From a virus (lineage: Duplodnaviria; Caudoviricetes): a stretch of DNA of 35,926 nt. The notes beneath the pieces are model-generated. The model saw nothing but the letters and a program-made list of their open reading frames with translations. It did no database searches and was not told where the DNA came from. This document shows positions 872 to 35,926 of this stretch, in pieces. Location of the stretch: positions 1 to 35,926 of IMG/VR virus record IMGVR_UViG_3300037422_000215; one strand, given 5' to 3'. Position 1 is the stretch's first letter, and the number at the start of each line of letters is the position of its first letter. Position numbers and translations under genes: made by a program.

Positions 872-1836
872 GCGCGGCGATCGATATCGCCGGGCTCGAC
901 CGTGAACGCTGGCTCGCGCTTCGCCGGCAAGGGATCGGCAGCAGCGACGCGCCGGCGATCGCCGGGTTCGACCGTTACCGGTCCCCGTTCGCGGTCTATG
1001 TCGACAAGATCGAGATCCTCGATCTTGTCGACACAGACAACGCGGCGATGGAGTGGGGCCGGCGGCTCGAGCAGGTCGTCGCCGAGAAGTTCGCCGATGA
1101 GCATCCCGAGCTCGAGCTGACGAAGCCGACGGTCATGTACCGGCACCGTGACTACGCGTGGATGCTCGCGTCACCCGACCGGATCGTCACCCCCGTCGCG
1201 TCGGGGTACGGCGAGGTCGGGCTCCTCGAGGTCAAGACGACGTCGCATTGGCGGGCCGGCGACTGGTCGGACGGCCCGCCGAACCATGTGCTCATCCAGG
1301 TGCAGCATCAGCTCGCCGTCACCGGCCTCGGACGGGCGTGGGTCGCCGCGCTGGTCGACGGCCGGACCTACCGCGAGTACGAGGTCGCCCGCGACGACGC
1401 CGCGATCGACGCGCTGATCGCGGTCGAGCACAGCTTCTGGTTCGATCATGTGGCCGCGCGGGTCCCGCCACCGATCGACGGTTCGGAGTCGACCGCGGAT
1501 GCGATCCGTGCCCTCTACGCGCATGTCCGGCCGGCGTCCGTGATCGAGCTGCCGGCGCACTACGGCGAGATCCTCGACGAGCTGGCGCGTACCCGCGCGT
1601 CGATCAAGGACGCCAAGGGCGACGAACGGCACCTGCTGAACACGATCCAGGCGGCGCTCGGCGAGAACGAGATCGGCCTGATCGACGGTGAGGTCGTCTG
1701 TACCTGGAAGGAGACGACGAGCCGGCGTGTGAACGTCGAACGGCTCCGTGAGCTCTACCCGGACGCGGCCGCCGACTGCACCGAGCTGTCTCGAACGCGA
1801 CGGTTCCTCTTGTTGAAAGGACCGACCGGTGAGTGA
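868..1836 (+). CDS. YqaJ-like viral recombination exonuclease
   Basis: WLALRRQGIGSSDA, EWGRRLE, LASPDR, LLEVKT, QVQHQL motifs; GAAGGAG RBS; GTGA overlap; directly upstream of recT. Confidence 0.92.
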   Translation: MSAAIDIAGLDRERWLALRRQGIGSSDAPAIAGFDRYRSPFAVYVDKIEILDLVDTDNAAMEWGRRLEQVVAEKFADEHPELELTKPTVMYRHRDYAWMLASPDRIVTPVASGYGEVGLLEVKTTSHWRAGDWSDGPPNHVLIQVQHQLAVTGLGRAWVAALVDGRTYREYEVARDDAAIDALIAVEHSFWFDHVAARVPPPIDGSESTADAIRALYAHVRPASVIELPAHYGEILDELARTRASIKDAKGDERHLLNTIQAALGENEIGLIDGEVVCTWKETTSRRVNVERLRELYPDAAADCTELSRTRRFLLLKGPTGE

Positions 1837-2827
1837 TCTCGCGAAGCAGATCGCCGCGAAGAGCGTCGAGGTCGAGCAGCGGCCGCGGGGCGTGACGGTC
1901 GCGGACCTGATCGAACGGCAGAAGGGCGAGATCGCGCGGGCGTTGCCGATCGGGATGGCACCCGAACGGTTCGCCCGCCTGCTCCTCACCGAGTGCCGCA
2001 AGACGCCTCAGCTGCTCGCGTGCACGCCTGCGTCGCTGCTCGGGGCGATGATGACCGCCGCGCAGCTCGGCCTCGAGCCTGGTGTCCTGCAGCACTGCTA
2101 TCTGATCCCTCGCAAGAAGCGGGGGACGCCGGAGGCGACGTTCCTGCTCGGCTACCGCGGAATGGTCGAGCTGAGCTTGCGGGGCGGCCGGACGTTGAGC
2201 GTCGACGCGCATGTCGTGCACGAACACGACGAGTTCGAGTTCGCGTACGGGACCGACCCGCGGCTGCGCCATGTCCCGCGGCTCGACGAGCGTGGCGAGC
2301 CGGTCGCCGTCTACGCGGTCGCCCTGTTGGCGACGGGCGGGAAGCCGTTCGTCGTCTTGTCGATGGCCGAGGTCGCACGCCGCCGGGCACATTCGCAGGC
2401 GGGCGAGACCGGCCCGTGGTCAACCGACTTCGAAGCAATGGCGCGTAAGAGCGCGGTGCGGGCGCTCGCCCCGTACTTGCCGCAGTCGGCGGAGTTCGCG
2501 GCCGCGCAGCGCCTCGACGAGATCGTGCGGACCGACTTCGATGTGAGCCTCGACGAGTACGAGCCGCCCGAACCGGTCGAGAACGAGAACTCAGGCGGAG
2601 ACCCCAACCCGGGCGACGAGGGGGCGGGTACACGTGGCGTGCCCGCCCCCGACTCGCCCGAGGCCGTCGAGCTGCTGAAGGGCGTGCGTCGGACGAAGAA
2701 GGGCGAGGCCGAATACCGCGAGTGGTGCAACACGTTCGAGCTCGACCCTGACGGCCATCTCGCATGGCCAGCCGAACGGTGGGCGACGTTCGTTGCCTGG
2801 GTCCACCAGGAGCCAGAGCCCGCATGA
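1829..2827 (+). CDS. recT: RecT-family ssDNA annealing recombinase
   Basis: SLLGAMMTAAQLGLEP, CYLIP, LGYRGMVEL, GPWSTDFEAMARKSAVRAL..YLP motifs. Confidence 0.93.
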   Translation: MSDLAKQIAAKSVEVEQRPRGVTVADLIERQKGEIARALPIGMAPERFARLLLTECRKTPQLLACTPASLLGAMMTAAQLGLEPGVLQHCYLIPRKKRGTPEATFLLGYRGMVELSLRGGRTLSVDAHVVHEHDEFEFAYGTDPRLRHVPRLDERGEPVAVYAVALLATGGKPFVVLSMAEVARRRAHSQAGETGPWSTDFEAMARKSAVRALAPYLPQSAEFAAAQRLDEIVRTDFDVSLDEYEPPEPVENENSGGDPNPGDEGAGTRGVPAPDSPEAVELLKGVRRTKKGEAEYREWCNTFELDPDGHLAWPAERWATFVAWVHQEPEPA

Positions 2828-3174
2828 GCCTCGCCTCCGACGTGCACGTGTGCGAGAGCTGTGGTGTGCCTGTGCCGCGGTGGCCGGACCGTGAACGGTG
2901 GCCGGACCGCTGCACCGCATGCAACCGGGAGCGGCGCGCCGCCCACCAGCGCGCCTACTACGAGGCCAACCGGGAGCGGCTCGCCGCCCACAAGCGCGCC
3001 TACTACGAGGCCAACCGGGAGCGGCTCGCCGCCTACCAGCGCGCCTACCGCGAGGCCAACCGGGAGCGGCGCGCCGCGGTGACGGAGGCGTCAGGCGCGT
3101 GCCCGTGGTGTGCGGTCGGTCAGCATGACGCCTGCGCTGGCGGGGCCTGCACATGCCATGGGGCCGCCGCGTGA
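2824..3174 (+). CDS. Cys-rich hypothetical protein with 15-aa tandem repeats
   Basis: ATGA overlap with recT; CxxC pairs flank NRERxAAxxRAYYEA repeats. Confidence 0.65.
   Translation: MSLASDVHVCESCGVPVPRWPDRERWPDRCTACNRERRAAHQRAYYEANRERLAAHKRAYYEANRERLAAYQRAYREANRERRAAVTEASGACPWCAVGQHDACAGGACTCHGAAA
2922..3077 (+). repeat. 45-bp coding tandem repeat, about 3.5 copies
   Basis: CAACCGGGAGCGGC starts at 2922, 2967, 3012 and 3057. Confidence 0.9.
3139..3174 (+). repeat. Junction repeat B (36 bp; copy B' at 5243-5278, 2 mismatches)
   Basis: GGCGGGGCCTGCACATGCCAYGGRGCCGCCGCGTGA; both copies end on the GTG(A) start of a methyltransferase gene. Confidence 0.9.
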
Positions 3175-4241
3175 GCATGACGGAGCTTGTCGCGACTGCC
3201 GGCGCGCTGGCCGTCCCTGATCCACGGGCCGGTGTGGTTCCTGTGGGCTGGTGGGAGTACGCGGCGGAGGCGATCGACGCGACCGATTCGTGGGACGAGC
3301 TCGATGATCTCGAGGGGAAGTTGGCTGCGGTCGTCGCGTATCTCGAGTCGCTCGGTGGCGATCAGGTCGAGTTCCTGAAGGCGCTCCGGGTGGTCGAGAA
3401 ACGCCGCGGCGACCTCCTCGGCCCGAAGGAGAAGGGCGGGCGCGGGAAAACTCTAACACGCGTGTTAGAGATTGACGCGTCGGCGATGACCTTGTCGCGG
3501 TGGCGTCTGCTGTCGGAGCATTGGGCGTTGCTGCTCCCGTGGCTGCGTGACGCGACGAGACGCGAGCAGGTGTCGCAGTCGCAGCTACTCCGACTCGTCC
3601 GCGAGCACACGCCGGCACGCGCCGACCCTGACGTTGCGGACGTCGCCGGCGAGCGGTTGACGATCCTGCACGGCGACTTCCGGGAGCGGCTGCTCGAGTT
3701 GGAAGCGGGTTCTGTGGATCTGATCGTGACCGACCCGCCGTACCCGAAGGAAGACCTGCCGCTCTACAGCGATCTCGGACAGGTCGCAGCGCTGCTGCTC
3801 GGCCCGCGCGGGATCCTGTTCTGCTGGACCGGCCAGATCTTCTTGCCGGAGGTGATCGGACGGCTCTCCGAACAGCTCACCTACGGATGGACGTTCGCGC
3901 TGCGGCTGCCCGGTCAGGGCTCACGGATCCTCGGCCGGCACATCGTCCAGGCATGGAAGCCGGTACTCGCGTTCACGACCGGTACATGGCCGTCGGGGAA
4001 GTGGGGCGACGACCTGCTCATCTCGCCAGCACCCGACAAGGACACCTACGAGTGGCAGCAGTCGGCGTTGCCGGCGCGACGTCTGATCGAGCGTTACTGT
4101 CCTCCCGACGGGCTCGTCGTCGATCCGTTCCTCGGTGTCGGCTCATTCGGTGTCGCAGCCCGTGAGGCTGGCTGCCGGTTCGTCGGCGTCGAGCTCGACG
4201 CGGGCCGGCACGCGAAGGCCGTCCAACGGATCGCAGGATGA
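3171..4241 (+). CDS. N6-A/N4-C DNA methyltransferase (beta-class motif order) with N-terminal extension
   Basis: VDLIVTDPPY (motif IV) precedes VVDPFLGVGS (motif I); FVGVELD. Confidence 0.88.
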   Translation: MSMTELVATAGALAVPDPRAGVVPVGWWEYAAEAIDATDSWDELDDLEGKLAAVVAYLESLGGDQVEFLKALRVVEKRRGDLLGPKEKGGRGKTLTRVLEIDASAMTLSRWRLLSEHWALLLPWLRDATRREQVSQSQLLRLVREHTPARADPDVADVAGERLTILHGDFRERLLELEAGSVDLIVTDPPYPKEDLPLYSDLGQVAALLLGPRGILFCWTGQIFLPEVIGRLSEQLTYGWTFALRLPGQGSRILGRHIVQAWKPVLAFTTGTWPSGKWGDDLLISPAPDKDTYEWQQSALPARRLIERYCPPDGLVVDPFLGVGSFGVAAREAGCRFVGVELDAGRHAKAVQRIAG

Positions 4242-4795
4242 ACGACCGTCGTTGCTGTGTCTGCGATGTCGTCTGGAGCGACCCGTTGCATCTGGCGCAG
4301 GTCGACCGCGATTGTGGCGGTTCGGTATGGCGCGGGAATCTCGGGCAGCTCATCCCGTACCGGCAGTGGGTACGCGAGAACTTCCCTTCGTCGCGTGACG
4401 GTGTGACTGTCGCCGGCGATGACGGTTTCTTGCGGTTCTTCTCTGATGAGGATCCGATCGGTGTTGTGTGTCCGTGGGAGTGGAAGACGTTCGGGAAGCC
4501 GCTCGATCGTCCGACTGCTCACACCTTTGCTGCGTTCCGAGAGGGAGCGGTTCTGGAGCCGGTCGTGATCAGGCTGATCGGCGGGAACACGCCCGGCCCG
4601 CTGCTGCACTACCCGTCCCCATGCGACTGCTGCGGGCTCCCGGAACGCCCGGAGACAGCCGACGCGATCCAAGTGAACGGCTCGGTGTTCGCGGCCGACC
4701 GGCTCGTCGACTGGCTCTTGCAGTATCTCGGTGACGAGCGTGCGTGGCTTGCCGATCCGGTGATCGATGTTCGTGTCGCGGGCGGTCGGTTGTGA
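4238..4795 (+). CDS. Hypothetical protein, possibly PD-(D/E)XK nuclease-like
   Basis: Coupled to the MTase; acidic stretch followed by WEWK; weak resemblance only. Confidence 0.5.
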   Translation: MNDRRCCVCDVVWSDPLHLAQVDRDCGGSVWRGNLGQLIPYRQWVRENFPSSRDGVTVAGDDGFLRFFSDEDPIGVVCPWEWKTFGKPLDRPTAHTFAAFREGAVLEPVVIRLIGGNTPGPLLHYPSPCDCCGLPERPETADAIQVNGSVFAADRLVDWLLQYLGDERAWLADPVIDVRVAGGRL

Positions 4796-4875
4796 ACGCG
4801 GAGACGCCCTGGGACCTGCTGCGCCGCGACTCTAGGGTGGCCGCGCCGTCGCTATTCGACGAGGCCGTCCTGTGA
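4792..4875 (+). CDS. 27-aa linker ORF (MNAETPWDLL...SLFDEAVL)
   Basis: GTGA overlaps at both ends, which keeps translational coupling. Confidence 0.4.
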   Translation: MNAETPWDLLRRDSRVAAPSLFDEAVL

Positions 4876-4929
4876 GCGCGCGCTGCAGCTATATGGATCG
4901 TCGTGGCCGTCAGTGCCTCCGTACCGTCG
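4872..4929 (+). repeat. Junction repeat C (copy of the 5' end of the HNH gene at 7710-7767)
   Basis: GTGAGCGCGCGCTG plus an exact 34-bp block GATCGTCGTGGCCGTCAGTGCCTCCGTACCGTCG (4896-4929 = 7734-7767). Confidence 0.92.
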
Positions 4930-5069
4930 AGGAGTACGAGCCCGACGACGACCAGGTGCTGGATGTCGATGAGGTCCCCAACCCGGGAGGGTCGGAGGCG
5001 GGGGACACGGTCGCCGCTGTCGAGCCCGCCTCCGCTCCCGACTACTACTCGCAATCCGAGGGAGGCCGA

Positions 5070-5291
5070 ATGCTCACCGTGCCCGAGCTCGCGCGGCGTT
5101 GGACCACAACCGCGCAGGTGATCTACAACCTGCGGCACCGCGGCGAGGGACCGCCCGCGATCCGCATCGGCCGTGAGCTGCGATTCCGGCTCGAGGACGT
5201 CGAGCGTTGGGAGCAGTCGCGGCTCGAAACGCCGACGCCCGCGGCGGGGCCTGCACATGCCACGGAGCCGCCGCGTGATCATCTCGACTGA
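5070..5291 (+). CDS. Excisionase/AlpA-like HTH DNA-binding protein (also the in-frame end of chimeric ORF 4872-5291)
   Basis: GGAGG RBS; MLTVPELARRW...IYNLRHRGEGPPAIRIGRELRFRLEDVERW. Confidence 0.85.
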   Translation: MLTVPELARRWTTTAQVIYNLRHRGEGPPAIRIGRELRFRLEDVERWEQSRLETPTPAAGPAHATEPPRDHLD

Positions 5292-7713
5292 CGAGCATGG
5301 CGCAGCGATCCTCACGCTCGAGGAATACCCCGATCTGCTCGCGTGCCGCGCTCTCGCCGAATGGCATTTCATAAGCGAGGATCCTCCCGAAGTCGCGACG
5401 AGAGTGGAGCATCTCGCCGCTGCTGGCCTCGCCGATGAGAGCGCGGCTGTCCGGTGGGCGCCACAGCCGGACTTCTTGTTCGATTATCAGCGGTGGATGG
5501 TTGAGCGGGCGCTCGACCGGGAACGGTTCGCGATCTTCGCCGATTGTGGCCTCGGCAAGACGCTCATGCAATTGGAATGGGCCCGCCAGATCATGCACGC
5601 GACGCAGGGGCGCGTGTTGATCGTCGCGCCGCTCCAGGTTGTGCACCAGACGGTCGACGAGGCGCACCACTTCTACGGTGAGTATCCGATCGTCGCACTC
5701 GATGATAGCGCGATGGTCCCCGCGTGGCTTTCTGCGCCCGGCCCGTCGGTCGCGATCACGAACTACGAGAAGATCGAGAAGCTTGACGGTACGATCTCCG
5801 TCGCGGGGGTTGTGCTCGACGAGTCGTCGGTCCTGAAGCAGACGATGGGCGCGCGGCGTACCGCGCTCATCCGGTGTTTCGCTGGCATCCGATACAAGTT
5901 GTGTTGTACGGCGACGCCAGCGCCGAACGATCGCGTCGAATACGCCGAGCACGCCTTCTTTCTTGATGTGGTCCGGTCGACCCGCGAATTCCTCGCCCGG
6001 TTCTTCGTCAATCTCGATGGCGAATGGCAGCTCAAGCACCACGGCGAGACGGCGTTCTACCGCCATCTCGCATCATGGTCGGTGTTCATGCGCGACCCCG
6101 CCGCTTACCGCTTCGCCGATAATCTGCGGGACCTCGCACCGATGACCGCGAAGTTCCCGGCTGTCCCGTTGACGGTCGAGCAGGCCGAAGCCGCACGTGG
6201 GTACGAGGCTGGCACGCAGCCGTCGCTGTTCGGCGCGACGCCGGGCGGGATCGTCTCGCGGACGAAAGTCATGCAGATCGCGCATGGGTTCCTGCTCGAC
6301 GGTAAGGGCAAGGTCACGGAGAGATACCCGACCTTGAAGCCGACCGCGATCGCCGAGCTTTGCAATATCACACACGGCGACGAGCAGGTCATCGTATGGG
6401 TGACGTTCGACGAGGAAGCCCGACAGGTCGCGGAACTGATCCCCGACGCGGCGGTGATCTCCGGCAAGACCCCGAAACCGAGGCGTGCGGTCCTGATCGA
6501 CGAGTTCCGACAAGGCGGCGGCCCGCGGGTGCTACTCGCGAAACCGTCGATGCTCGGGTTCGGCCTGAACCTCCAATCGTGTCGCATCCAGGTGTTCTCG
6601 ACGATCACCGACAGTTTCGAGCGGTACTACCAGGCCGTCCGACGCTCACACCGCTACGGCCAGACACGCCCGGTAATCGTCTACGTCCCGCTCACGCCAC
6701 TCGACGACGCGATGTGTCAGAACGTGCTCAGCAAAGAGGCCGTGTGGCGCGAAGACGGCCGTCGCCAAGAACAAGCGTACGTCGATGTGCTCAGACCCCG
6801 CGACGACACCGAACGGAGAGTGCTAGTGACAACCCCGCAAGCCGAGCTCGATCGCGTCGAGGCCACCGAGTGGACGATGATCCAGGGCGACTCGATCGCC
6901 CACATGGAGACGATGGCCGATCAGTCGGTCGACTTTTCGATCTTCTCGCCACCGTTCGCGAACCTGTTCACCTACTCCAGCGCCGCCGCGGATATGGGCA
7001 ACGTCCGCGGCGATGCGGAGTACCGGCTCCAGTGGCGTTGGTTCGCTGAACGCCTCCTCCGGGTGATGCGACCGGGCCGCAACGTCGCGATCCACTGTAT
7101 GGACATCATCCGGTTCGCGAGTCAACACGGGGTCCGGCACACCTACGACTACCCGTCCGATCTACGCGCGGGGATGCAGGACGCAGGGTTCCTCTACCGG
7201 GCTCGCGTGTCGATCGACAAGAACCCGCAGGCCCAGGCGACCCGGACCAAAGACGCCAATCTGCTGTTCGTGACACTGACCCGCGACGCGCTCGATTCGC
7301 ACCCGCAGGCCGGTGAGTACGTACTTCTGTTCACCGCTCCCGGTGAGAACGAGACGCCGGTCATGGCGATGGATGTCTCGAACGCGGAGTGGATCGAGTG
7401 GGCACACCACGTCTGGTACGGCATTCGCGAAACTGATGTCCTGAACGCGGCGCTCGGGAAAGAGCACCAGGACGAGCGCCATATCTGCCCGCTGCAACTC
7501 CCCTTGATCGAACGGTCTGTACGACTCTGGTCGAATCGCGGCGAGATGATCTTCTCGCCGTTCGCGGGAATCGGATCCGAGGGCTATGTCGCATTGGAGT
7601 GGGGCCGCCGGTTCTACGGCGTCGAACTAAAGCGCTCATACTTCGATCAGGCATGCCGGTTCTTGGATCAGAAGACGAATGCCGTTGCTGGTCGTATGGG
7701 CTTCGCGTCGTGA
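5275..7713 (+). CDS. SNF2-like helicase fused to a C-terminal N4-C/N6-A DNA methyltransferase
   Basis: FADCGLGKT, LDESS, TATPAPND, GFGLNLQ, QAVRRSHRYGQ; then SIFSPPF and IFSPFAGIGSEG; start inferred from repeat B'. Confidence 0.88.
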   Translation: MIISTDEHGAAILTLEEYPDLLACRALAEWHFISEDPPEVATRVEHLAAAGLADESAAVRWAPQPDFLFDYQRWMVERALDRERFAIFADCGLGKTLMQLEWARQIMHATQGRVLIVAPLQVVHQTVDEAHHFYGEYPIVALDDSAMVPAWLSAPGPSVAITNYEKIEKLDGTISVAGVVLDESSVLKQTMGARRTALIRCFAGIRYKLCCTATPAPNDRVEYAEHAFFLDVVRSTREFLARFFVNLDGEWQLKHHGETAFYRHLASWSVFMRDPAAYRFADNLRDLAPMTAKFPAVPLTVEQAEAARGYEAGTQPSLFGATPGGIVSRTKVMQIAHGFLLDGKGKVTERYPTLKPTAIAELCNITHGDEQVIVWVTFDEEARQVAELIPDAAVISGKTPKPRRAVLIDEFRQGGGPRVLLAKPSMLGFGLNLQSCRIQVFSTITDSFERYYQAVRRSHRYGQTRPVIVYVPLTPLDDAMCQNVLSKEAVWREDGRRQEQAYVDVLRPRDDTERRVLVTTPQAELDRVEATEWTMIQGDSIAHMETMADQSVDFSIFSPPFANLFTYSSAAADMGNVRGDAEYRLQWRWFAERLLRVMRPGRNVAIHCMDIIRFASQHGVRHTYDYPSDLRAGMQDAGFLYRARVSIDKNPQAQATRTKDANLLFVTLTRDALDSHPQAGEYVLLFTAPGENETPVMAMDVSNAEWIEWAHHVWYGIRETDVLNAALGKEHQDERHICPLQLPLIERSVRLWSNRGEMIFSPFAGIGSEGYVALEWGRRFYGVELKRSYFDQACRFLDQKTNAVAGRMGFAS

Positions 7714-8084
7714 GCGCGCGCTGTCCGCATGTCGATCGTCGTGGCCGTCAGTGCCTCCGTACCGTCGGGACGCACCGGCTGCACGTCTATGTCGCGCTCC
7801 CGCGGCACTCGCGGAAGGGCTACCGGAAGGCGCGACTGTGGGCGCTCGACCGTGCCCGCGGGCGCTGCGAAGCGACCGCGCTCGAGCATGAGTGTGACGG
7901 GCCGCTCGAGGTGCATCACATCTTGAAGCGTTCGCAGGGCGGAAGCGACGACCCGGACAACCTGCTCGTCGCGTGTGCGGTGGCGCACCGGCAGATTCAT
8001 GAGAACCCGTCGCTCTCGGAGATGCTCGGGCTGCTCAGGAGACGGGCTGCTCAGAGGGCGATGGTTGGAAGGTCTCGCCGGTGA
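7710..8084 (+). CDS. HNH endonuclease
   Basis: GRCE...LEVHHILKRSQGGSDDPDNLLVACAVAHRQIH. Confidence 0.88.
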   Translation: MSARCPHVDRRGRQCLRTVGTHRLHVYVALPRHSRKGYRKARLWALDRARGRCEATALEHECDGPLEVHHILKRSQGGSDDPDNLLVACAVAHRQIHENPSLSEMLGLLRRRAAQRAMVGRSRR

Positions 8085-8236
8085 GTTTCGTGGGGCAGCT
8101 GCTGGTCGTGTGGGCGTGTCTGCTCGCGGTGTTCGTCGCGGGATGGTCGGTCCACTCGCGGGAGCTACGGGAGCGTGAGGCGAAGGCCCGGCGGATGTTC
8201 GCAGGCCGTACCGAGCCGTGCGAGGGCGACCGGTGA
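8081..8236 (+). CDS. Small single-pass membrane protein (51 aa)
   Basis: Own translation MSFVGQLLVVWACLLAVFVAGWSVHSRE...; GTGA overlaps at both ends. Confidence 0.6.
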   Translation: MSFVGQLLVVWACLLAVFVAGWSVHSRELREREAKARRMFAGRTEPCEGDR

Positions 8237-8622
8237 CGCTCGTGAAGTGCAGGGAGTGCTCCGAGCCGTTCAACGGCCCGGGCCGGCTCGCGACGCATAT
8301 GCGTCGCGAGCACCGCCAAGAGCTCCTCGACGACGAGCAGCCGGAGCAAGCCATGGAGGGGCGCGTGGAGCACCAGGCATGTGCCCACCGGGACGCGGAG
8401 CCGTCCCCGCCGCCGTCTCCGGCGCCCGCGGCATCCCCGGTCATGCCGATGACAAGCGACCGGACGCGGCCGAACGGTGCGGGGCGGCTCGGTGCAATCG
8501 GACAGTTACGGCGCTGCCGGGAGCAGATCCTCAAGGACCTCGAGCAGGTCGAGCCGGGTCTCGTGGGTGATCTGGTCCGGGTCGAGGCTGCGCTCGACAT
8601 CCTCGAAGGGAGGGTCGGCTGA
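8233..8622 (+). CDS. C2H2 zinc-finger protein
   Basis: CRECSEPFNGPGRLATHMRREH fits C-x2-C-x12-H-x4-H. Confidence 0.7.
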   Translation: MTLVKCRECSEPFNGPGRLATHMRREHRQELLDDEQPEQAMEGRVEHQACAHRDAEPSPPPSPAPAASPVMPMTSDRTRPNGAGRLGAIGQLRRCREQILKDLEQVEPGLVGDLVRVEAALDILEGRVG

Positions 8623-9395
8623 TGGCAGACCTGTACGTCCCGCTCGATGTGAACGCCCCTGACGACCCGAAGATCCTCGCGGCCGGCGACCGGGCCGAGC
8701 TCGTCTTCTACCGGGCGCTCTGCCTCGCGAAGCGGCTGTCGTCGGACGGATTCATCGCGGCGGCACAGCTGACCCGCCAGCTCGGCGGCGTCACGGACGA
8801 CGCGGGGCGGCTTGTCGCGGTCGGGTTGTGGGCCGAAGTCGACGGCGGCTGGCAGATCGTGTCGTTCCTGAAACGCAACCCGTCCGCGGCCGCGCTGGCG
8901 GAACGTCGCGAGGCACAGAAGTCCCGGAAGGACAAGTGGCGTGCGCGACGCGATGGTCCCGACGATCCGGCTGACGATCGCGACGCGGACGCGACGCGGG
9001 ACAGCAGCGTCGCGCGACGTGATCGCGACGTGGGACCGTCGAAGCCCGCGACGCGCAGTGAAGTTGAAGTGAAGAGAAGTGAAGTGAAGAACCCTCCGGG
9101 GGGCGCGCTCGCAAGCTCGCCGCACCCCGACCGGCAGCCCCGAACCGACCCGGCACCGGCCGGCAAGGTCGCCGTTGCCGGCTACATCGCCGACTACCGA
9201 GCCACGCACGGCGGCAAGAGCCCGCCCGGGATCTGGATGGCGCAGGCCGGCGCGCAGTCGAAGGCGCTGCTCGCAGACGGCACCGACCTCGGCGACATCC
9301 AGATCGCGCTCGGAGTGTGCGCCCGCGAGAACAAGTCGCCGAAGACGCTCGCGCATGTGCTGGCCGACTTGCACTCGTCGAGGGCCGTGTCGTGA
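8622..9395 (+). CDS. Putative phage replication initiator (replisome organiser)
   Basis: N-terminal DDPKI...ALCLAKR..SDGFI...LVAVGLW domain, basic helix, then a low-complexity repeated linker. Confidence 0.7.
   Translation: MADLYVPLDVNAPDDPKILAAGDRAELVFYRALCLAKRLSSDGFIAAAQLTRQLGGVTDDAGRLVAVGLWAEVDGGWQIVSFLKRNPSAAALAERREAQKSRKDKWRARRDGPDDPADDRDADATRDSSVARRDRDVGPSKPATRSEVEVKRSEVKNPPGGALASSPHPDRQPRTDPAPAGKVAVAGYIADYRATHGGKSPPGIWMAQAGAQSKALLADGTDLGDIQIALGVCARENKSPKTLAHVLADLHSSRAVS
8940..9091 (+). promoter_or_regulatory. Candidate intragenic replication origin (iterons plus purine-rich tract)
   Basis: Clustered CGCGACG repeats followed by GTGAAGTTGAAGTGAAGAGAAGTGAAGTGAAGAA inside the initiator gene, as in lambda O-type genes. 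Confidence 0.5.
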
Positions 9396-9488
9396 CGTCC
9401 GGCCGGTTCCAACGCCCGACAGCACCCGCGGATCCGACGCGCCCGGTCGAGTGTTGGGTCGTGACGCTCACCTGGGTCGAGGACGAGC
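9344..9488 (+). repeat. Exact 145-bp direct repeat D (copy at 9822-9966)
   Basis: Base-for-base match at offset 478; spans the initiator stop and the next gene's first 32 codons. Confidence 0.95.
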
Positions 9489-9811
9489 CCGGTCGAGCGC
9501 GCGTTGTCCGAGTGCAGCTCGAAGCTGGCGGAGAGCGCGGGATCACCCGGCAGCACGTCCCCGGCGAGCTCGGCGCGTCGCTCGTGATCGGCGATCCGGA
9601 GTGGTACTCGCCAGCGGCGACCGAGGCCGCGCGGGCAACACGCAAGCGGGTGACGCCTGCCCGGCTCGCCGAGGTCGCCCAGGCCTGGCGCGAGGCCGGT
9701 ATCGACGGGATCACGGCGCTCGGCGTCAGCGAGCGCCAGGCGTGGCGCCTGAAGGCACGTGCCAAGGAGGCCGGCCTCCTGACCGGCATCGACGACAAGG
9801 AGACGCAATGA
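9392..9811 (+). CDS. Chimeric protein: duplicated N-terminus plus C-terminal HTH-like domain
   Basis: Shares MTSGRFQ...WVEDE with 9870-10142; ends RLAEVAQAWREAG...LGVSERQAWRLKARAKEAGLL. Confidence 0.65.
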   Translation: MTSGRFQRPTAPADPTRPVECWVVTLTWVEDEPGRARVVRVQLEAGGERGITRQHVPGELGASLVIGDPEWYSPAATEAARATRKRVTPARLAEVAQAWREAGIDGITALGVSERQAWRLKARAKEAGLLTGIDDKETQ

Positions 9812-9869
9812 GGCGTAGAGCGACGCTCGCGCATGTGCTGGCCGACTTGCACTCGTCGAGGGCCGTGTC

Positions 9870-10142
9870 GTGACGTCCGGCCGGTTCCAACGCCCGACAG
9901 CACCCGCGGATCCGACGCGCCCGGTCGAGTGTTGGGTCGTGACGCTCACCTGGGTCGAGGACGAGCACGGCCGGCCGATCACCTGCGCTCGCACCAGCTA
10001 CCTGGCGACCGAGGCCGAAGCGACAGCGCGCTTCTGCGAGCTTGACCGGCTGATCCGGTTCGAGGCGTGGCGCCCGAATCTGCGTGCCCGCGACGTCCAG
10101 GTTGACCTGCCGTATCGGCAGCCGGGACGGAGAACCGCGTGA
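9870..10142 (+). CDS. Hypothetical protein
   Basis: ORF track; GTGA overlaps at both ends. Confidence 0.6.
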   Translation: MTSGRFQRPTAPADPTRPVECWVVTLTWVEDEHGRPITCARTSYLATEAEATARFCELDRLIRFEAWRPNLRARDVQVDLPYRQPGRRTA

Positions 10143-10174: not shown

Positions 10175-10855
10175 ATGACCATGTTGACCTACCACGGCGA
10201 TCACGACCTGAAAGCGGCAGTACTCGCGGAGTTGGCGGCGCACCGTGTCGCGGACGAGATCATCCAAGGGACCTACTGGCGTGACGGGAAGGGCTGCGCG
10301 GTCGGCTGCCTGACCCACGACCCTCACGGTGGCCATCACCTGTACGAGTCGAGGTGGGGGATCCCGGAGTGGCTCGCTCGCCTCGAAGACGCCGTGTTCG
10401 AGGGACTCCCGCTCGACGCGGCGAAGGGCTGGCCGGAGCGGTTCATGGGTGCGGTCCCGGTCGGTGTCGAGATCACCGACAGTGTCGCGGACGGGCTTGC
10501 GGTCGAACGGCTGACGGTCGAGGTCCTGCCGCTCGCGCCGTCGTGGCCCGAGCCGGTACGGGCTGAGGTTGTGGGGGCGGTGGAGCAGGTGATCGATGCG
10601 CTCGGCGGCGACGACCTAGCAGCACGCGCGCGGTCGGCGGGGGCGGCGTGGGCGGCGGAGTCGGCGGCGTGGGCGGCGGCGTGGGCGGCGCGGGCGGCGG
10701 CGGAGTCGGCGGCGTGGGCGGCGGAGTCGGCGGCGTGGGCGGCGCGGTGGGCGGAGTCGGCGGGGTGGGCGGCGGAGTCGGCGGCGCGGTGGGAGGCGGA
10801 GGCGGACCGGATCATCGCAGCGCTCGCGATGCTCGGGGAGACGGCCATCGCGTGA
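10175..10855 (+). CDS. Hypothetical protein with AAWAAES repeats (in-frame upstream GTG at 10139)
   Basis: AAGGAG RBS; QGTYW..GKGCAVGC...GIP..LARLED..FEGL domain, then Ala/Trp repeats. Confidence 0.75.
   Translation: MTMLTYHGDHDLKAAVLAELAAHRVADEIIQGTYWRDGKGCAVGCLTHDPHGGHHLYESRWGIPEWLARLEDAVFEGLPLDAAKGWPERFMGAVPVGVEITDSVADGLAVERLTVEVLPLAPSWPEPVRAEVVGAVEQVIDALGGDDLAARARSAGAAWAAESAAWAAAWAARAAAESAAWAAESAAWAARWAESAGWAAESAARWEAEADRIIAALAMLGETAIA
10633..10803 (+). repeat. Degenerate G-rich coding repeat (GCGGCGTGGGCGGCGGAGTCG units)
   Basis: Read directly. Confidence 0.85.
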
Positions 10856-25112: not shown

Positions 25113-26284
25113 TGGAACTGTCATTCTGGCAGAAGCGATTCACGGTCATCCCCTCCGACGCGCCGACCGCATGGAAGAACCGCGGCCGGTACGTGTGCGA
25201 CGGGACGAACGACCAGGTCGAGATCAACGCCGCGATCACCGACGCGTTCAACACCTCCGGAACCGCCGAAGGCGGGTTCGTGCAGCTCTGCCCCGGCACC
25301 TACACGATCGCGCATCCGGGCGTGACGATGCTCGGCCGGACGATCCTGCGCGGCGCCGGCGCCGCGACAGTCCTCTCGGGGACCGGCACATGGTCGACAC
25401 GTTCCGGGCTGATCACATTGAGCGACGACGACGACAGCGAACGGTGGCTCGTCGAAGGATTCATGCTCCGCGGGAACAACATCGCGAACTGCGACGGCGT
25501 CTATGTCAAGATCGACATCGGCGGTGGCGGCGGGAACTTCACCGGCGACGGCGACGTCGACGCCGCCGGACGGATCGATCTCATCTGGATCTGGAACACC
25601 GACTACGGCGTCCACATCGACAGCATCGGGACGAACGGCGACGCGCAGGCGATCCTCACCAGCCGCGTCCGGATCCGCAACACACGGAGCAGCGGGATCC
25701 GCAGCAACGTCGCCGACAACCACTTCCACATGGTCGACGTCGGCGGCTGCTCCGACGCGAATCCCGGTGCCGGGATCGAGATTCTCCAGGCGAACAACAA
25801 GATCTCGAACAGCAAGTTCTGGTACACGACCCGTGCCAGCGGGTCGTCCGCCGATTGGCACGGCGCCGGAATGCGGATCGGTTCGGCCGGCAACCACATC
25901 AGCAATGTGATCTGCCAGGAGAACCAGGGGCACGGAGCGATCCTCGTCAACGCGTCCGGCCAGTTCGGCGCCCGGACGAAAATCGATATCGTCGCCCACG
26001 CGAACAGCCGTGGTAACGAAGGTGTCTACGACGGATTCCATGCCGCGTCGGGCGCCCACCATTTCGTCGCTGATGTCGTCTCGCATTCCGCCGGCGCGGA
26101 CGGCCGTCACCGCGCCGGTGTTGGACTGATCGCGCCGACCGACTTCCTCGTCAGGATCGTGAGCGACAAGGGTCTCACCGGCGACGCTGACGTCGACGAC
26201 GTGTTCATCTCCGGGACACCACACCGGGGCGCGATCCAGGCCGCGTCCGCCGACGGCTACAGCCTCACGACCTACCCGACATGA
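25112..26284 (+). CDS. Right-handed beta-helix tailspike/depolymerase-like protein
   Basis: CDGTNDQVEINAAI, VQLCPGTY, LRGAG; Asn/Gly/Ile repeats. Confidence 0.7.
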   Translation: MELSFWQKRFTVIPSDAPTAWKNRGRYVCDGTNDQVEINAAITDAFNTSGTAEGGFVQLCPGTYTIAHPGVTMLGRTILRGAGAATVLSGTGTWSTRSGLITLSDDDDSERWLVEGFMLRGNNIANCDGVYVKIDIGGGGGNFTGDGDVDAAGRIDLIWIWNTDYGVHIDSIGTNGDAQAILTSRVRIRNTRSSGIRSNVADNHFHMVDVGGCSDANPGAGIEILQANNKISNSKFWYTTRASGSSADWHGAGMRIGSAGNHISNVICQENQGHGAILVNASGQFGARTKIDIVAHANSRGNEGVYDGFHAASGAHHFVADVVSHSAGADGRHRAGVGLIAPTDFLVRIVSDKGLTGDADVDDVFISGTPHRGAIQAASADGYSLTTYPT

Positions 26285-27648
26285 CCTGGGGCGAGGTCGG
26301 CGGCCTGTTCGGCGCCGACGGTTTCGGGACCACGTGGGGCGCCGACGGGATCGTCACGACCGAGAGCTGGCCCGACATCCAGATCCTCGTCAACTTCACG
26401 ACCGGTCCGCTCGAGACTCCGACATGGACCGACATTGCGACACTCGTCCACGGCTTCACGATCCAGCGGGGACGGACGAGCGAACTTGCCGAGTTCCCGG
26501 CCAGCACCGCGACGTTCGAGCTCGACAACAGCTACGACGGAGGTTCACGGCCGTTCGACCCCGACGACACCAGCTCGCCGTATGCAGGGAAGTTGACGAC
26601 GAACCGGCGAGTCCGAGTGCAGGCATCCTGGGATGGGTTCAGCTACATCCTCTGGGATGGCTATATCGAGGACTGGCCGGCGCCCGTGCCGACGACGTTC
26701 GACGCCGAGTCGATCCAAGTCACCGCGTCCGACGCGCTCAGCCTGTTCGCAGGTCGTCGACTCACGCCGGCGAAGCCGTTCACGATCGGCGACCCGGTCC
26801 TCGGCAAGCTCGACGACCCGACCGTGTTCATTGCCGGGACCGCGCACTTCGGAGAGCAGCGTTCCGGCGACCGTGTCGGCACGATCCTCGATCTTGTCGG
26901 CTGGCCCTCCGACCGGCGCGACATCGACGAAGGACTCACCCGACTGATCGCCGACAGCCCCGACCCGAAGACCAGCGTCGTCGACTCGTTGAACGGGATC
27001 GCCCGCACCGAGTACGGGCGGCTGCTCGTCACCGCGGACGGCGACATCGCCTACTGGCAGCGCCGCTCGTGGACGACCCGCACGACCCAAGCCGCCACGA
27101 ACCTGACGCTCACCGACAATCCGGCGAACCCAGGCAGCCCGTACACCGATCTCGCGATGCGGCCTGCCGCCCGTGTGAACATCCGCAACCTGGTCGAGCG
27201 TGGCGTCAGGAACGGCCGGACGTTCGTCGCCCGCGACAGCACCAGCTGCGACAGTTACGGCGTCCGCGAAGATTCGCAGACCGACCTGCTCATGCTGGAT
27301 GATCAGGAGGCGCAGGACCAGGCCGAGTACGTCCTCGCCCGTTACAAGGACCCGGTCCGCCAGATCGAACGGCTCACGCTCGAACCGTTCGCCGACCCGG
27401 CTGGGCTCTGGCCGCAGGTCCTCTCCCGCGAGATCGGGGATCGGGTCACCGTCGAGCGGACGCCCCGGCCCGGCGCGACGACCGTCAGCGACGACTACTG
27501 GATCGAAGCGATCGGACATACGGCGACCGCGCGCCGTGCCTGGTCGACGACCTGGCATCTCGCCCGGGTCGATGACGGACAGTTCTTCACGATCGGCGAC
27601 CCGGTCCTCGGCAAGCTCGACGACCCGATGATCGTCCTCGCCTACTAG
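26281..27648 (+). CDS. Tail tip (hub/baseplate-like) protein
   Basis: IQRGR, LDN...FDP, LWDGYI, SGDRV..ILD..GWP, EIGDRVTV, IEAIGH. Confidence 0.75.
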   Translation: MTWGEVGGLFGADGFGTTWGADGIVTTESWPDIQILVNFTTGPLETPTWTDIATLVHGFTIQRGRTSELAEFPASTATFELDNSYDGGSRPFDPDDTSSPYAGKLTTNRRVRVQASWDGFSYILWDGYIEDWPAPVPTTFDAESIQVTASDALSLFAGRRLTPAKPFTIGDPVLGKLDDPTVFIAGTAHFGEQRSGDRVGTILDLVGWPSDRRDIDEGLTRLIADSPDPKTSVVDSLNGIARTEYGRLLVTADGDIAYWQRRSWTTRTTQAATNLTLTDNPANPGSPYTDLAMRPAARVNIRNLVERGVRNGRTFVARDSTSCDSYGVREDSQTDLLMLDDQEAQDQAEYVLARYKDPVRQIERLTLEPFADPAGLWPQVLSREIGDRVTVERTPRPGATTVSDDYWIEAIGHTATARRAWSTTWHLARVDDGQFFTIGDPVLGKLDDPMIVLAY

Positions 27649-35255: not shown

Positions 35256-35926
35256 GTGAACACACAACCCCAGGTCGTACGCGATCTCGATCTCGACACG
35301 CTGATCCTCCGCGCAGGTGGCCACACGGAGCATCAGGACGCGTTCTGCGTCATGGAAGCAGTCGCATGGGTCGCCGGCGAGCCGTGGTCGGACCACCCTG
35401 AGTGCGCATGCCCGGTCATCACCTCGTTCATGGTCCGGTGGAACGATCGGATCGGCGATGATGAGACCCGTACGCGGCTGCTCGTCCCGCTGATCCCGCG
35501 CCTGATTGGTACCCGTTCGAGCCGTGAGGTCGAGCAGGCGCGGCGTTGGGCGCTGGCGGATTGGGCGGCCCGGACCGCCGCGCCGATCTGGCTGCGGGCG
35601 GCCGGTTTGGATGGTGACGCGGCCGCGTTGGAAGGCTGCGCGCCGATCGTCGACCGCGCGACGGCGGACGCGGCAGGGTCGGTCGCGACCCCGATCCGCG
35701 AACGTGCATGGGAGCGTCGCCGCGAACTGATCGCCAAGGTGCGCGCTGCCGTTGCCGTTGCCGATGCCGTTGCCGATGCCGTTGCCGCTGCCGTTGCCGT
35801 TGCCGCTGCCGATGCCGCTGCCGATGCCGCTGCCGATGCCGATGCCGATGCCGCTGCCGCTGCCGCTGCCGATGCCGATGCCGCTGCCGCTGCCGCTGCC
35901 GCTGCCGCTGCCGCTGCCGCTGCCGA
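35256..35926 (+). CDS. Ala-repeat hypothetical protein, N-terminal part (continues at 1-374)
   Basis: Missing from the ORF track because no stop occurs before the contig end; own translation MNTQPQ...GGH...FCVMEAVAWVAGEPWSDHPECACPVITSFMVRWND... Confidence 0.8.
   Translation, partial: MNTQPQVVRDLDLDTLILRAGGHTEHQDAFCVMEAVAWVAGEPWSDHPECACPVITSFMVRWNDRIGDDETRTRLLVPLIPRLIGTRSSREVEQARRWALADWAARTAAPIWLRAAGLDGDAAALEGCAPIVDRATADAAGSVATPIRERAWERRRELIAKVRAAVAVADAVADAVAAAVAVAAADAAADAAADADADAAAAAAADADAAAAAAAAAAAAAAA
35713..35926 (+). repeat. Second copy of the terminal overlap plus a variant hexamer array
   Basis: 35713-35811 equals 1-99; unit order differs afterwards. Confidence 0.9.

Follow-up and report, generated by a model that had tools for sequence, protein, structure and literature searches.

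Two non-identical recT-to-HNH intervals in tandem in a phage genome, a likely product of mosaicism

Background

Why does a phage carry two unrelated DNA methyltransferase (MTase) genes one behind the other, with the same short sequences recurring around both? The question is raised by IMG/VR virus record IMGVR_UViG_3300037422_000215, whose 35,926 bases (68% G+C) were analysed in full and are called the window here. In the interval between its recT gene and a gene for an HNH endonuclease, three short homologies (A, B and C) each occur twice, as A-B-C followed by A'-B'-C'. The first block contains the gene of MTase1 and the second a gene for a helicase fused to an MTase (helicase-MTase2). An earlier interpretation made from the letters alone (the sequence-only reading) proposed two alternative alleles of the same slots on a shared scaffold, forming a switchable anti-restriction methylation cassette. 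Our analysis suggests another answer. The interval is probably a tandem pair of non-identical versions of the recT-to-HNH part of a phage early operon, formed when a piece of a sister phage (2.4-2.8 kb) recombined beside the resident copy. Mosaicism of the ordinary phage kind is thus a likelier origin than a cassette system that can be switched. This would be a snapshot of mosaicism, with both alleles of an interval side by side and the joint still readable: a useful example, although unsurprising to phage genomicists, of a route by which phages gather several anti-restriction MTases. The genes and repeats of the interval, from yqaJ to the HNH gene, are given on the plus strand.

Direct repeats made of gene ends

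Repeat B (3139-3174 and 5243-5278) is identical at 34 of 36 positions (94%), with mismatches at 3159 and 3162, and its local score of 71 compares with a maximum of 49 across 481 random window pairs. Repeat C (4872-4929 and 7710-7767) is identical at 51 of 58 positions (88%). All seven mismatches fall inside 4886-4895 and are directly followed by an exact core of 34 bp (4896-4929); the score is 91, against a maximum of 46 across 468 random window pairs. B and C are real repeats, far above chance. The two copies of repeat A (2550-2660 and 4927-5040) share a 16-mer matching at 15 of 16 positions and the 12-mer CCCCAACCCGGG, and each has a hairpin. The longest exact matches are 12 bases in A, 20 in B and 34 in C. 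All three repeats are direct, and self-BLAST gave no inverted pair around the MTase genes; C and C' enclose 2838 bp, A and A' 2377 bp. Divergence is uneven among them, that of A being patchy, which would fit divergence between sister phages. The claim of three homologies in the same order therefore stands for the order, for B and for C, whereas A is weak and passed a permissive test after failing a strict one.

Each repeat is a piece of a gene. A starts at the end of the RecT core, is read in the RecT frame and covers the boundary between core and linker together with the linker itself, including a GC-rich hairpin at 2610-2660 (fold z -4.3); RecT homologs have similar acidic linkers at that place. 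It had been described as the 3' segment of recT plus a hairpin. The shared words and hairpins are indeed present, but the segment lies in the linker, about 55 codons upstream of the stop, and not at the extreme 3' end. A' (hairpin 4984-5040) is likely to be an orphan, the recT linker of a sister phage: it is in the same frame as A and begins at the same core/linker boundary. When it was compared with the tails of 120 RecT homologs, the three best matches started at the equivalent linker position.

B consists of the last 12 codons of a Cys-rich gene; the stop codon of this gene overlaps a GTG that is in the frame of MTase1. B' is the orphan 3' end of a homolog of this gene and carries the GGAG and the GTG start of helicase-MTase2. 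B and B' encode an identical peptide, the two differences being synonymous, and at both variable codons B' agrees with a distant outgroup homolog in locus L151. B folds no better than shuffled sequences (z about 0.3). C corresponds to the first 19 codons of an HNH homolog, left as an orphan 5' end, while C' is formed by the first 58 bases of the intact HNH gene and encodes its N-terminus; the seven differences, clustered in 10 bases, change three residues. C and A' meet in a novel joint at 4927-4929, where they overlap by a 3-bp TCG microhomology, and the reading frame continues from C through A' into the following helix-turn-helix (HTH) gene, exactly as the sequence-only reading had noted.

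Since the repeats correspond to a recT linker, the 3' end of the Cys-rich gene and the 5' start of the HNH gene, they are coding remnants rather than a dedicated scaffold, and coding and translation signals explain their conservation. The two blocks do look like versions of one recT-to-HNH interval, as the idea of alternative alleles requires; it is the notion of a maintained scaffold that lacks support.

The hairpin arms of A and A' were compared directly. Both stems are fully paired, with two compensatory changes between the copies. In both places the GC-rich hairpin follows a 9-base motif (2600-2660 and 4974-5040), and a similar arrangement is found at 2352-2468 of L151, in the linker of an unrelated Gp3-like gene. 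Conservation of the recT-linker hairpin, resting on three sequences, is only a lead.

Contig evidence for the tandem

The arrangement was compared with one public sequencing run, in the form of contigs only; the run contains 0.98 of 742 sampled words from 1800-9000. A unitig corresponding to 4900-7763 (depth 10.5, 0 differences) passes unbroken from the C core through A' and B' into C', and a contig corresponding to 3048-3403 (depth 11.7) runs unbroken across B. Depths are 11.7-13.5 in the upstream contigs and 11.9 downstream. The sequence-only reading had itself raised a chimeric assembly of two strains, to be recognised by the lack of any reads spanning the C-A' junction. Such a chimera is unlikely because it would lack the C-to-A' words, and these are present in the unbroken unitig. 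The stretch 3526-4899, which is empty of contigs, was considered as a sign that the first module is missing; this was rejected, because a gap in the contigs is no proof of absence and the run contains 0.98 of the words.

Deletion by recombination between the repeats would produce joints from 3174 to 5279 or from 4929 to 7768. The check for these, proposed with the cassette idea, was run on the contigs. Neither was found among the 2 joints at 97% likeness or among the listed 15 of 36 joints at 85% likeness, and contigs are blind to rare variants, to a crossover inside the 34-bp core of C and to the distinction between a linear form and a 2838-bp circle. Low-likeness joints in the 85% set, with sides of only 20-33 letters, were treated as noise.

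Origin of the tandem

The proposed origin would involve one illegitimate joint, at the TCG microhomology, linking an HNH 5' end to a recT linker. It would also involve a homologous crossover, located at the recT boundary or in the 34-bp core of C; the latter would fit a Campbell-like entry of 2838 bases. RecE/RecT of the phage itself may have helped. B and C would have survived as gene ends with start signals and stop-start overlaps, only operon-coupled products having persisted. A later one-way deletion through C would be expected now and then, as decay rather than as a programmed switch. Either block may be the incoming one.

Several points weigh against this origin. The second block is more than a plain alternative allele, because its HTH gene stands in place of both the C-terminal domain of RecT and the greater part of the Cys-rich gene. 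More than one event would thus be needed, including an extra one to place the HTH gene between A' and B'. Repeat A is statistically marginal. It was missed by self-BLAST, and with strict scoring it is at chance (28, compared with a null median of 25 for 472 pairs). With a permissive scoring, picked after the strict test and applied to a window centred on the claimed site, 0 of 3000 dinucleotide shuffles reach its score, and of 1771 genome windows none matches it better than A'; at the protein level the similarity is marginal, being reached by 290 of 5000 shuffles. No close relative, and hence no sister phage with one copy of the interval, was found in viral or metagenome contigs or among cultured phages, in collections that may lack records near this genome; we infer the parents. 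The contigs also have their limits. None covers approximately 3526-4899, which leaves the join from the hypothetical gene downstream of MTase1 to C without an independent view; the unitig extends only 30 letters to the left of the end of C, one too few for the bridging rule; and the assembly may itself derive from the public run. Finally, with RecE/RecT and a 34-bp exact repeat both present, deletion is mechanically feasible.

Alternative explanations

We consider the cassette idea improbable. B and C would be maintained slots, and a population would cycle between forms with two MTases and with one through RecT-driven deletion and re-integration of the circle, varying its methylation pattern. 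The modelled deletions do preserve frames and gene coupling, as had been claimed: B x B' recombination leaves the 116-amino-acid Cys-rich gene followed by a gene of 812 amino acids, and C x C' recombination leaves an intact HNH gene of 124 amino acids. (A x A' recombination would give a RecT-HTH fusion of 362 amino acids.) The RecE/RecT genes are next door, and Rad52-like recombinases act on short, diverged homologies according to the accessible parts of PMC3945230. The minimum quoted there for Red-beta is, however, 23-27 exact bp. The core of C, at 34 bp, passes it; B (20 bp) and A (12 bp) fall short. In the available text of PMC7468147, no known genes are more frequent in variable phage islands than orphan MTases.

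Against a cassette, the repeats are direct and therefore allow loss only, not reversible switching; nor have they been homogenised. No tyrosine integrase or resolvase was found in the record (zero PF00589 or PF00239 matches across its length). The contigs are unbroken over B and B', the listed joints include neither deletion, and the depth of the second module is near that of its flanks. In addition, the homolog of the Cys-rich gene in L151 and that of helicase-MTase2 in another phage locus, L004, have other neighbours. A switchable system of this kind, if true, would be novel; the present data do not call for one.

An accordion-like variant seems doubtful to a similar degree. MTase blocks from sister phages would be stacked, collapsed through the C core and re-acquired, the recT-linker hairpin serving as an entry mark, and one population would contain several methylation types. 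If frequent collapse and re-expansion were true, a phage population could vary its methylation by means of its own recombinase, without a site-specific one.

An assembly artefact, in which a separate 2838-bp circle, or a unit of that size from another strain, was threaded in through the C core, is quite improbable. The C core does break contigs in a k-mer graph, so that linear and circular readings yield identical pieces, and the uncovered stretch 3526-4899 is also consistent with it. Against this stand the unbroken C-to-A' words, which a two-strain chimera would not contain, a depth matching that of the flanks and the nearly complete word content of the run. Moreover, a 34-bp repeat is shorter than usual sequencing reads.

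We regard self-duplication of the interval within one phage, after which each copy had its cargo replaced independently, as about as improbable as an artefact. It would produce the identical geometry, and since B' agrees with the outgroup wherever B and B' differ, change is needed in the first copy only. Young duplications of this phage's own DNA do happen, as a 152-bp repeat with 99% identity at 9344 and 9822 shows. On the other hand, the three repeats diverge to very different extents, an orphan B' would not have stayed unchanged while A' diverged strongly, and the differences in C are clustered and alter residues.

Least credible of all, and very unlikely, is a small selfish element formed by the HTH and helicase-MTase2 genes and inserting at HNH 5' ends: the C repeats do flank the unit, its HTH gene is excisionase-like, and its helicase-MTase is widespread and found in other contexts, but there is no integrase or transposase inside it and the L004 homolog lacks HTH, A', B' and C.

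Relatives and occurrence of B and C elsewhere

Searches for the elements in other genomes gave little. The exact B pattern had 0 matches in viral contigs and a 26-mer of C had 0 exact matches in metagenome contigs. Single-query searches of viral contigs gave no relatives of HNH or MTase1, two RecT scans found relatives of 38-49% only, none with A, B or C, and an MTase1 profile scan over 4 of 64 parts of the collection returned distant MTases only. At the DNA level, 59 records of cultured phages gave matches, and the 15 listed all match within the helicase-MTase gene.

Across 231 fetched loci (2.6 Mb), the sole meaningful match was between B' and the Cys-rich gene homolog in L151/L152 (one phage), over 27 bases at 85%. 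In L151 this homolog comes after the Gp3-like gene and keeps the B peptide; there is no MTase, HNH or RecT match in the 13.4-kb locus, nor by DNA in the 19.6-kb record. In L004, recT is found about 5 kb downstream of the helicase-MTase homolog. An 80% match of A' to L232 was put down to chance, since the gene concerned is unrelated. No relative shows B and C around other cargo, but the phages available for comparison are distant and speak neither for nor against the idea of slots with variable cargo.

Other repeat-flanked inserts and known systems

The same genome contains a second repeat-flanked insert. The 152-base direct repeat (9344-9495 and 9822-9973) surrounds 326 bases and spans the 3' end of a replication gene and the start of the next gene, with both junctions in frame; contig depth is 17.5 on the repeat and 8-12 beside it. 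There is also a 43-base exact direct repeat (26779-26821 and 27586-27628) inside an open reading frame (ORF) at 26281-27648, among the tail genes.

Spaced direct repeats of at least 30 bases occur in 12 of 92 dereplicated phage loci, and two or more in 4 of the 92. These loci are a non-random set, mostly recT neighbourhoods, reduced from 133 fetched loci of at least 8 kb (own-genome loci and L152-L155 excluded). Two unrelated phages among them have the same geometry: in L046 (13879-16019) a colinear set of gene pieces is duplicated around different cargo, and in L029 (6465-8166) a 161-base gene fragment is duplicated around cargo.

Comparable cases have been described in mycobacteriophages (PMC3029335, as far as its available sections go). 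LRRHood has a 1.35 kb insertion between 29-bp repeats, and gene 68 of Island3 shares about 50-60 bp with the 3' neighbouring sequence of gene 67, at its end. For both, the authors invoke general recombination enzymes, acting either in an exchange with a partner phage or in a deletion suffered by the relatives. As in the present genome, extra genes lie between short direct repeats that are duplicated gene ends. Unlike those cases as described there, the present one has three colinear remnants of a multi-gene interval, an MTase in both cargos and no known single-copy relative. The locus also resembles the models of mosaicism based on boundary sequences, illegitimate recombination or the relaxed recombination of Rad52-like enzymes (PMC3029335 and PMC3945230, in the portions available) in its homologies at gene boundaries, its adjacent RecE/RecT genes and its preserved operon coupling. 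The usual product in those accounts is allele replacement, whereas here both alleles are retained in tandem.

Among cultured phages, mycobacteriophage ByChance (cluster F) has genes for a recombinase, HNH, helicase, methylase and further methylase in a row, with no switch annotation. It resembles the present locus in having a homolog of helicase-MTase2 (about 36% identity) near a recombinase and HNH and more than one methylase gene; it differs in that helicase and MTase are fused here. Orphan MTases move often among actinophages, in the accessible text of PMC9957025. MTase1 differs from the orphan MTases of cultured actinophages in that its family has only partial and distant matches in cultured phages.

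In the form first proposed, the locus would resemble systems that change methylation specificity through repeats. In Helicobacter restriction-modification genes, target-recognition domains are reportedly exchanged within genes (domain movement), and phase-variable hsdS shufflons work through inverted repeats on which a site-specific recombinase acts. Here no such exchange of domains within genes is seen, the repeats are direct and the record has no recombinase match of either Pfam family named above. A literature search, with supplements outside its scope, turned up no phage MTase cassette switch.

Genes of the interval

The gene labels of the sequence-only reading agree with the Pfam and PHROG matches. 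A YqaJ-like exonuclease gene, the RecE-type partner (868-1836; PF09588, E 8.8e-29), is adjacent to that of an intact RecT single-strand annealing protein (1829-2827; PF03837, E 8e-45), and the two form a RecE/RecT pair. In an alignment with 12 homologs, the RecT core, acidic linker and C-terminal domain were all seen in the homologs too. The Cys-rich gene (2824-3174) ends in B and contains a 45-base tandem repeat at 2922-3077. The number of the corresponding 15-residue repeats varies among database copies, giving lengths of 116 and 101 amino acids, and of 136 and 106 in its homolog.

MTase1 (3171-4241; start GTG at 3171 or ATG at 3177) is a β-class amino-MTase with an extra N-terminal domain (PF01555, PHROG 67). 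It matches CcrM and DpnA and has DPPY (186) before DPFLGVGS (316). There are 801 relatives at E ≤ 1e-30; among cultured phages the 8 matching records are distant and partial, none with more than 80% coverage. A hypothetical gene of 185 amino acids follows (4238-4795), with no Pfam or PHROG match and the lowest G+C at third codon positions (0.75) of the genes measured. Between it and C lies a 27-codon ORF or gene remnant (4792-4875), whose stop overlaps the start of C. It is coupled to both neighbours, has no match in the fetched loci and is possibly the tail of a lost gene.

In the second block, the HTH_17 or excisionase-like gene (5070-5291; PF12728, PHROG 66) has its own strong ribosome-binding site (Shine-Dalgarno duplex -10.7). 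Helicase-MTase2 (5275-7713) joins a SNF2-like helicase to a β-class amino-MTase, as assigned from Pfam, PHROG and motifs, with SPPF (558) before SPFAGIGS (761). Its start is supported by the L004 homolog (68%), which has a matching start, and it is matched by 1096 phage records. The intact HNH endonuclease gene (7710-8084; PF01844, PHROG 740) closes the interval. Judged by their motifs, both MTases are predicted to be intact β-class enzymes of the N4/N6 type (PF01555), with the catalytic motif IV before the S-adenosylmethionine-binding motif I. Lying in one coupled gene run, they would be co-expressed and would give additive protection of phage DNA from host restriction.

Genome setting

Terminase, portal, protease, capsid and tail-tube genes are present. 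The record is classed as 'linear, 73% complete', but the genome is probably circular and closed, with a length of about 35.7 kb, because the first 45 bases are found again at 35713; the ends are joined by a low-complexity alanine-coding repeat (1-212 and 35713-35926). A second repeat of this low-complexity type is located at 10630-10805. The host is likely to be actinobacterial, since the named RecT matches include Actinotalea, Nanopelagicales and one mycobacteriophage. No sigma-70-type promoter was found, the one terminator-like site is at chance level, and Rfam gave 0 matches within 2300-8200. Near-perfect palindromes lie within the coding sequences of yqaJ (994-1038), MTase1 (3448-3473) and a zinc-finger gene (8286-8311), and are possible operators.

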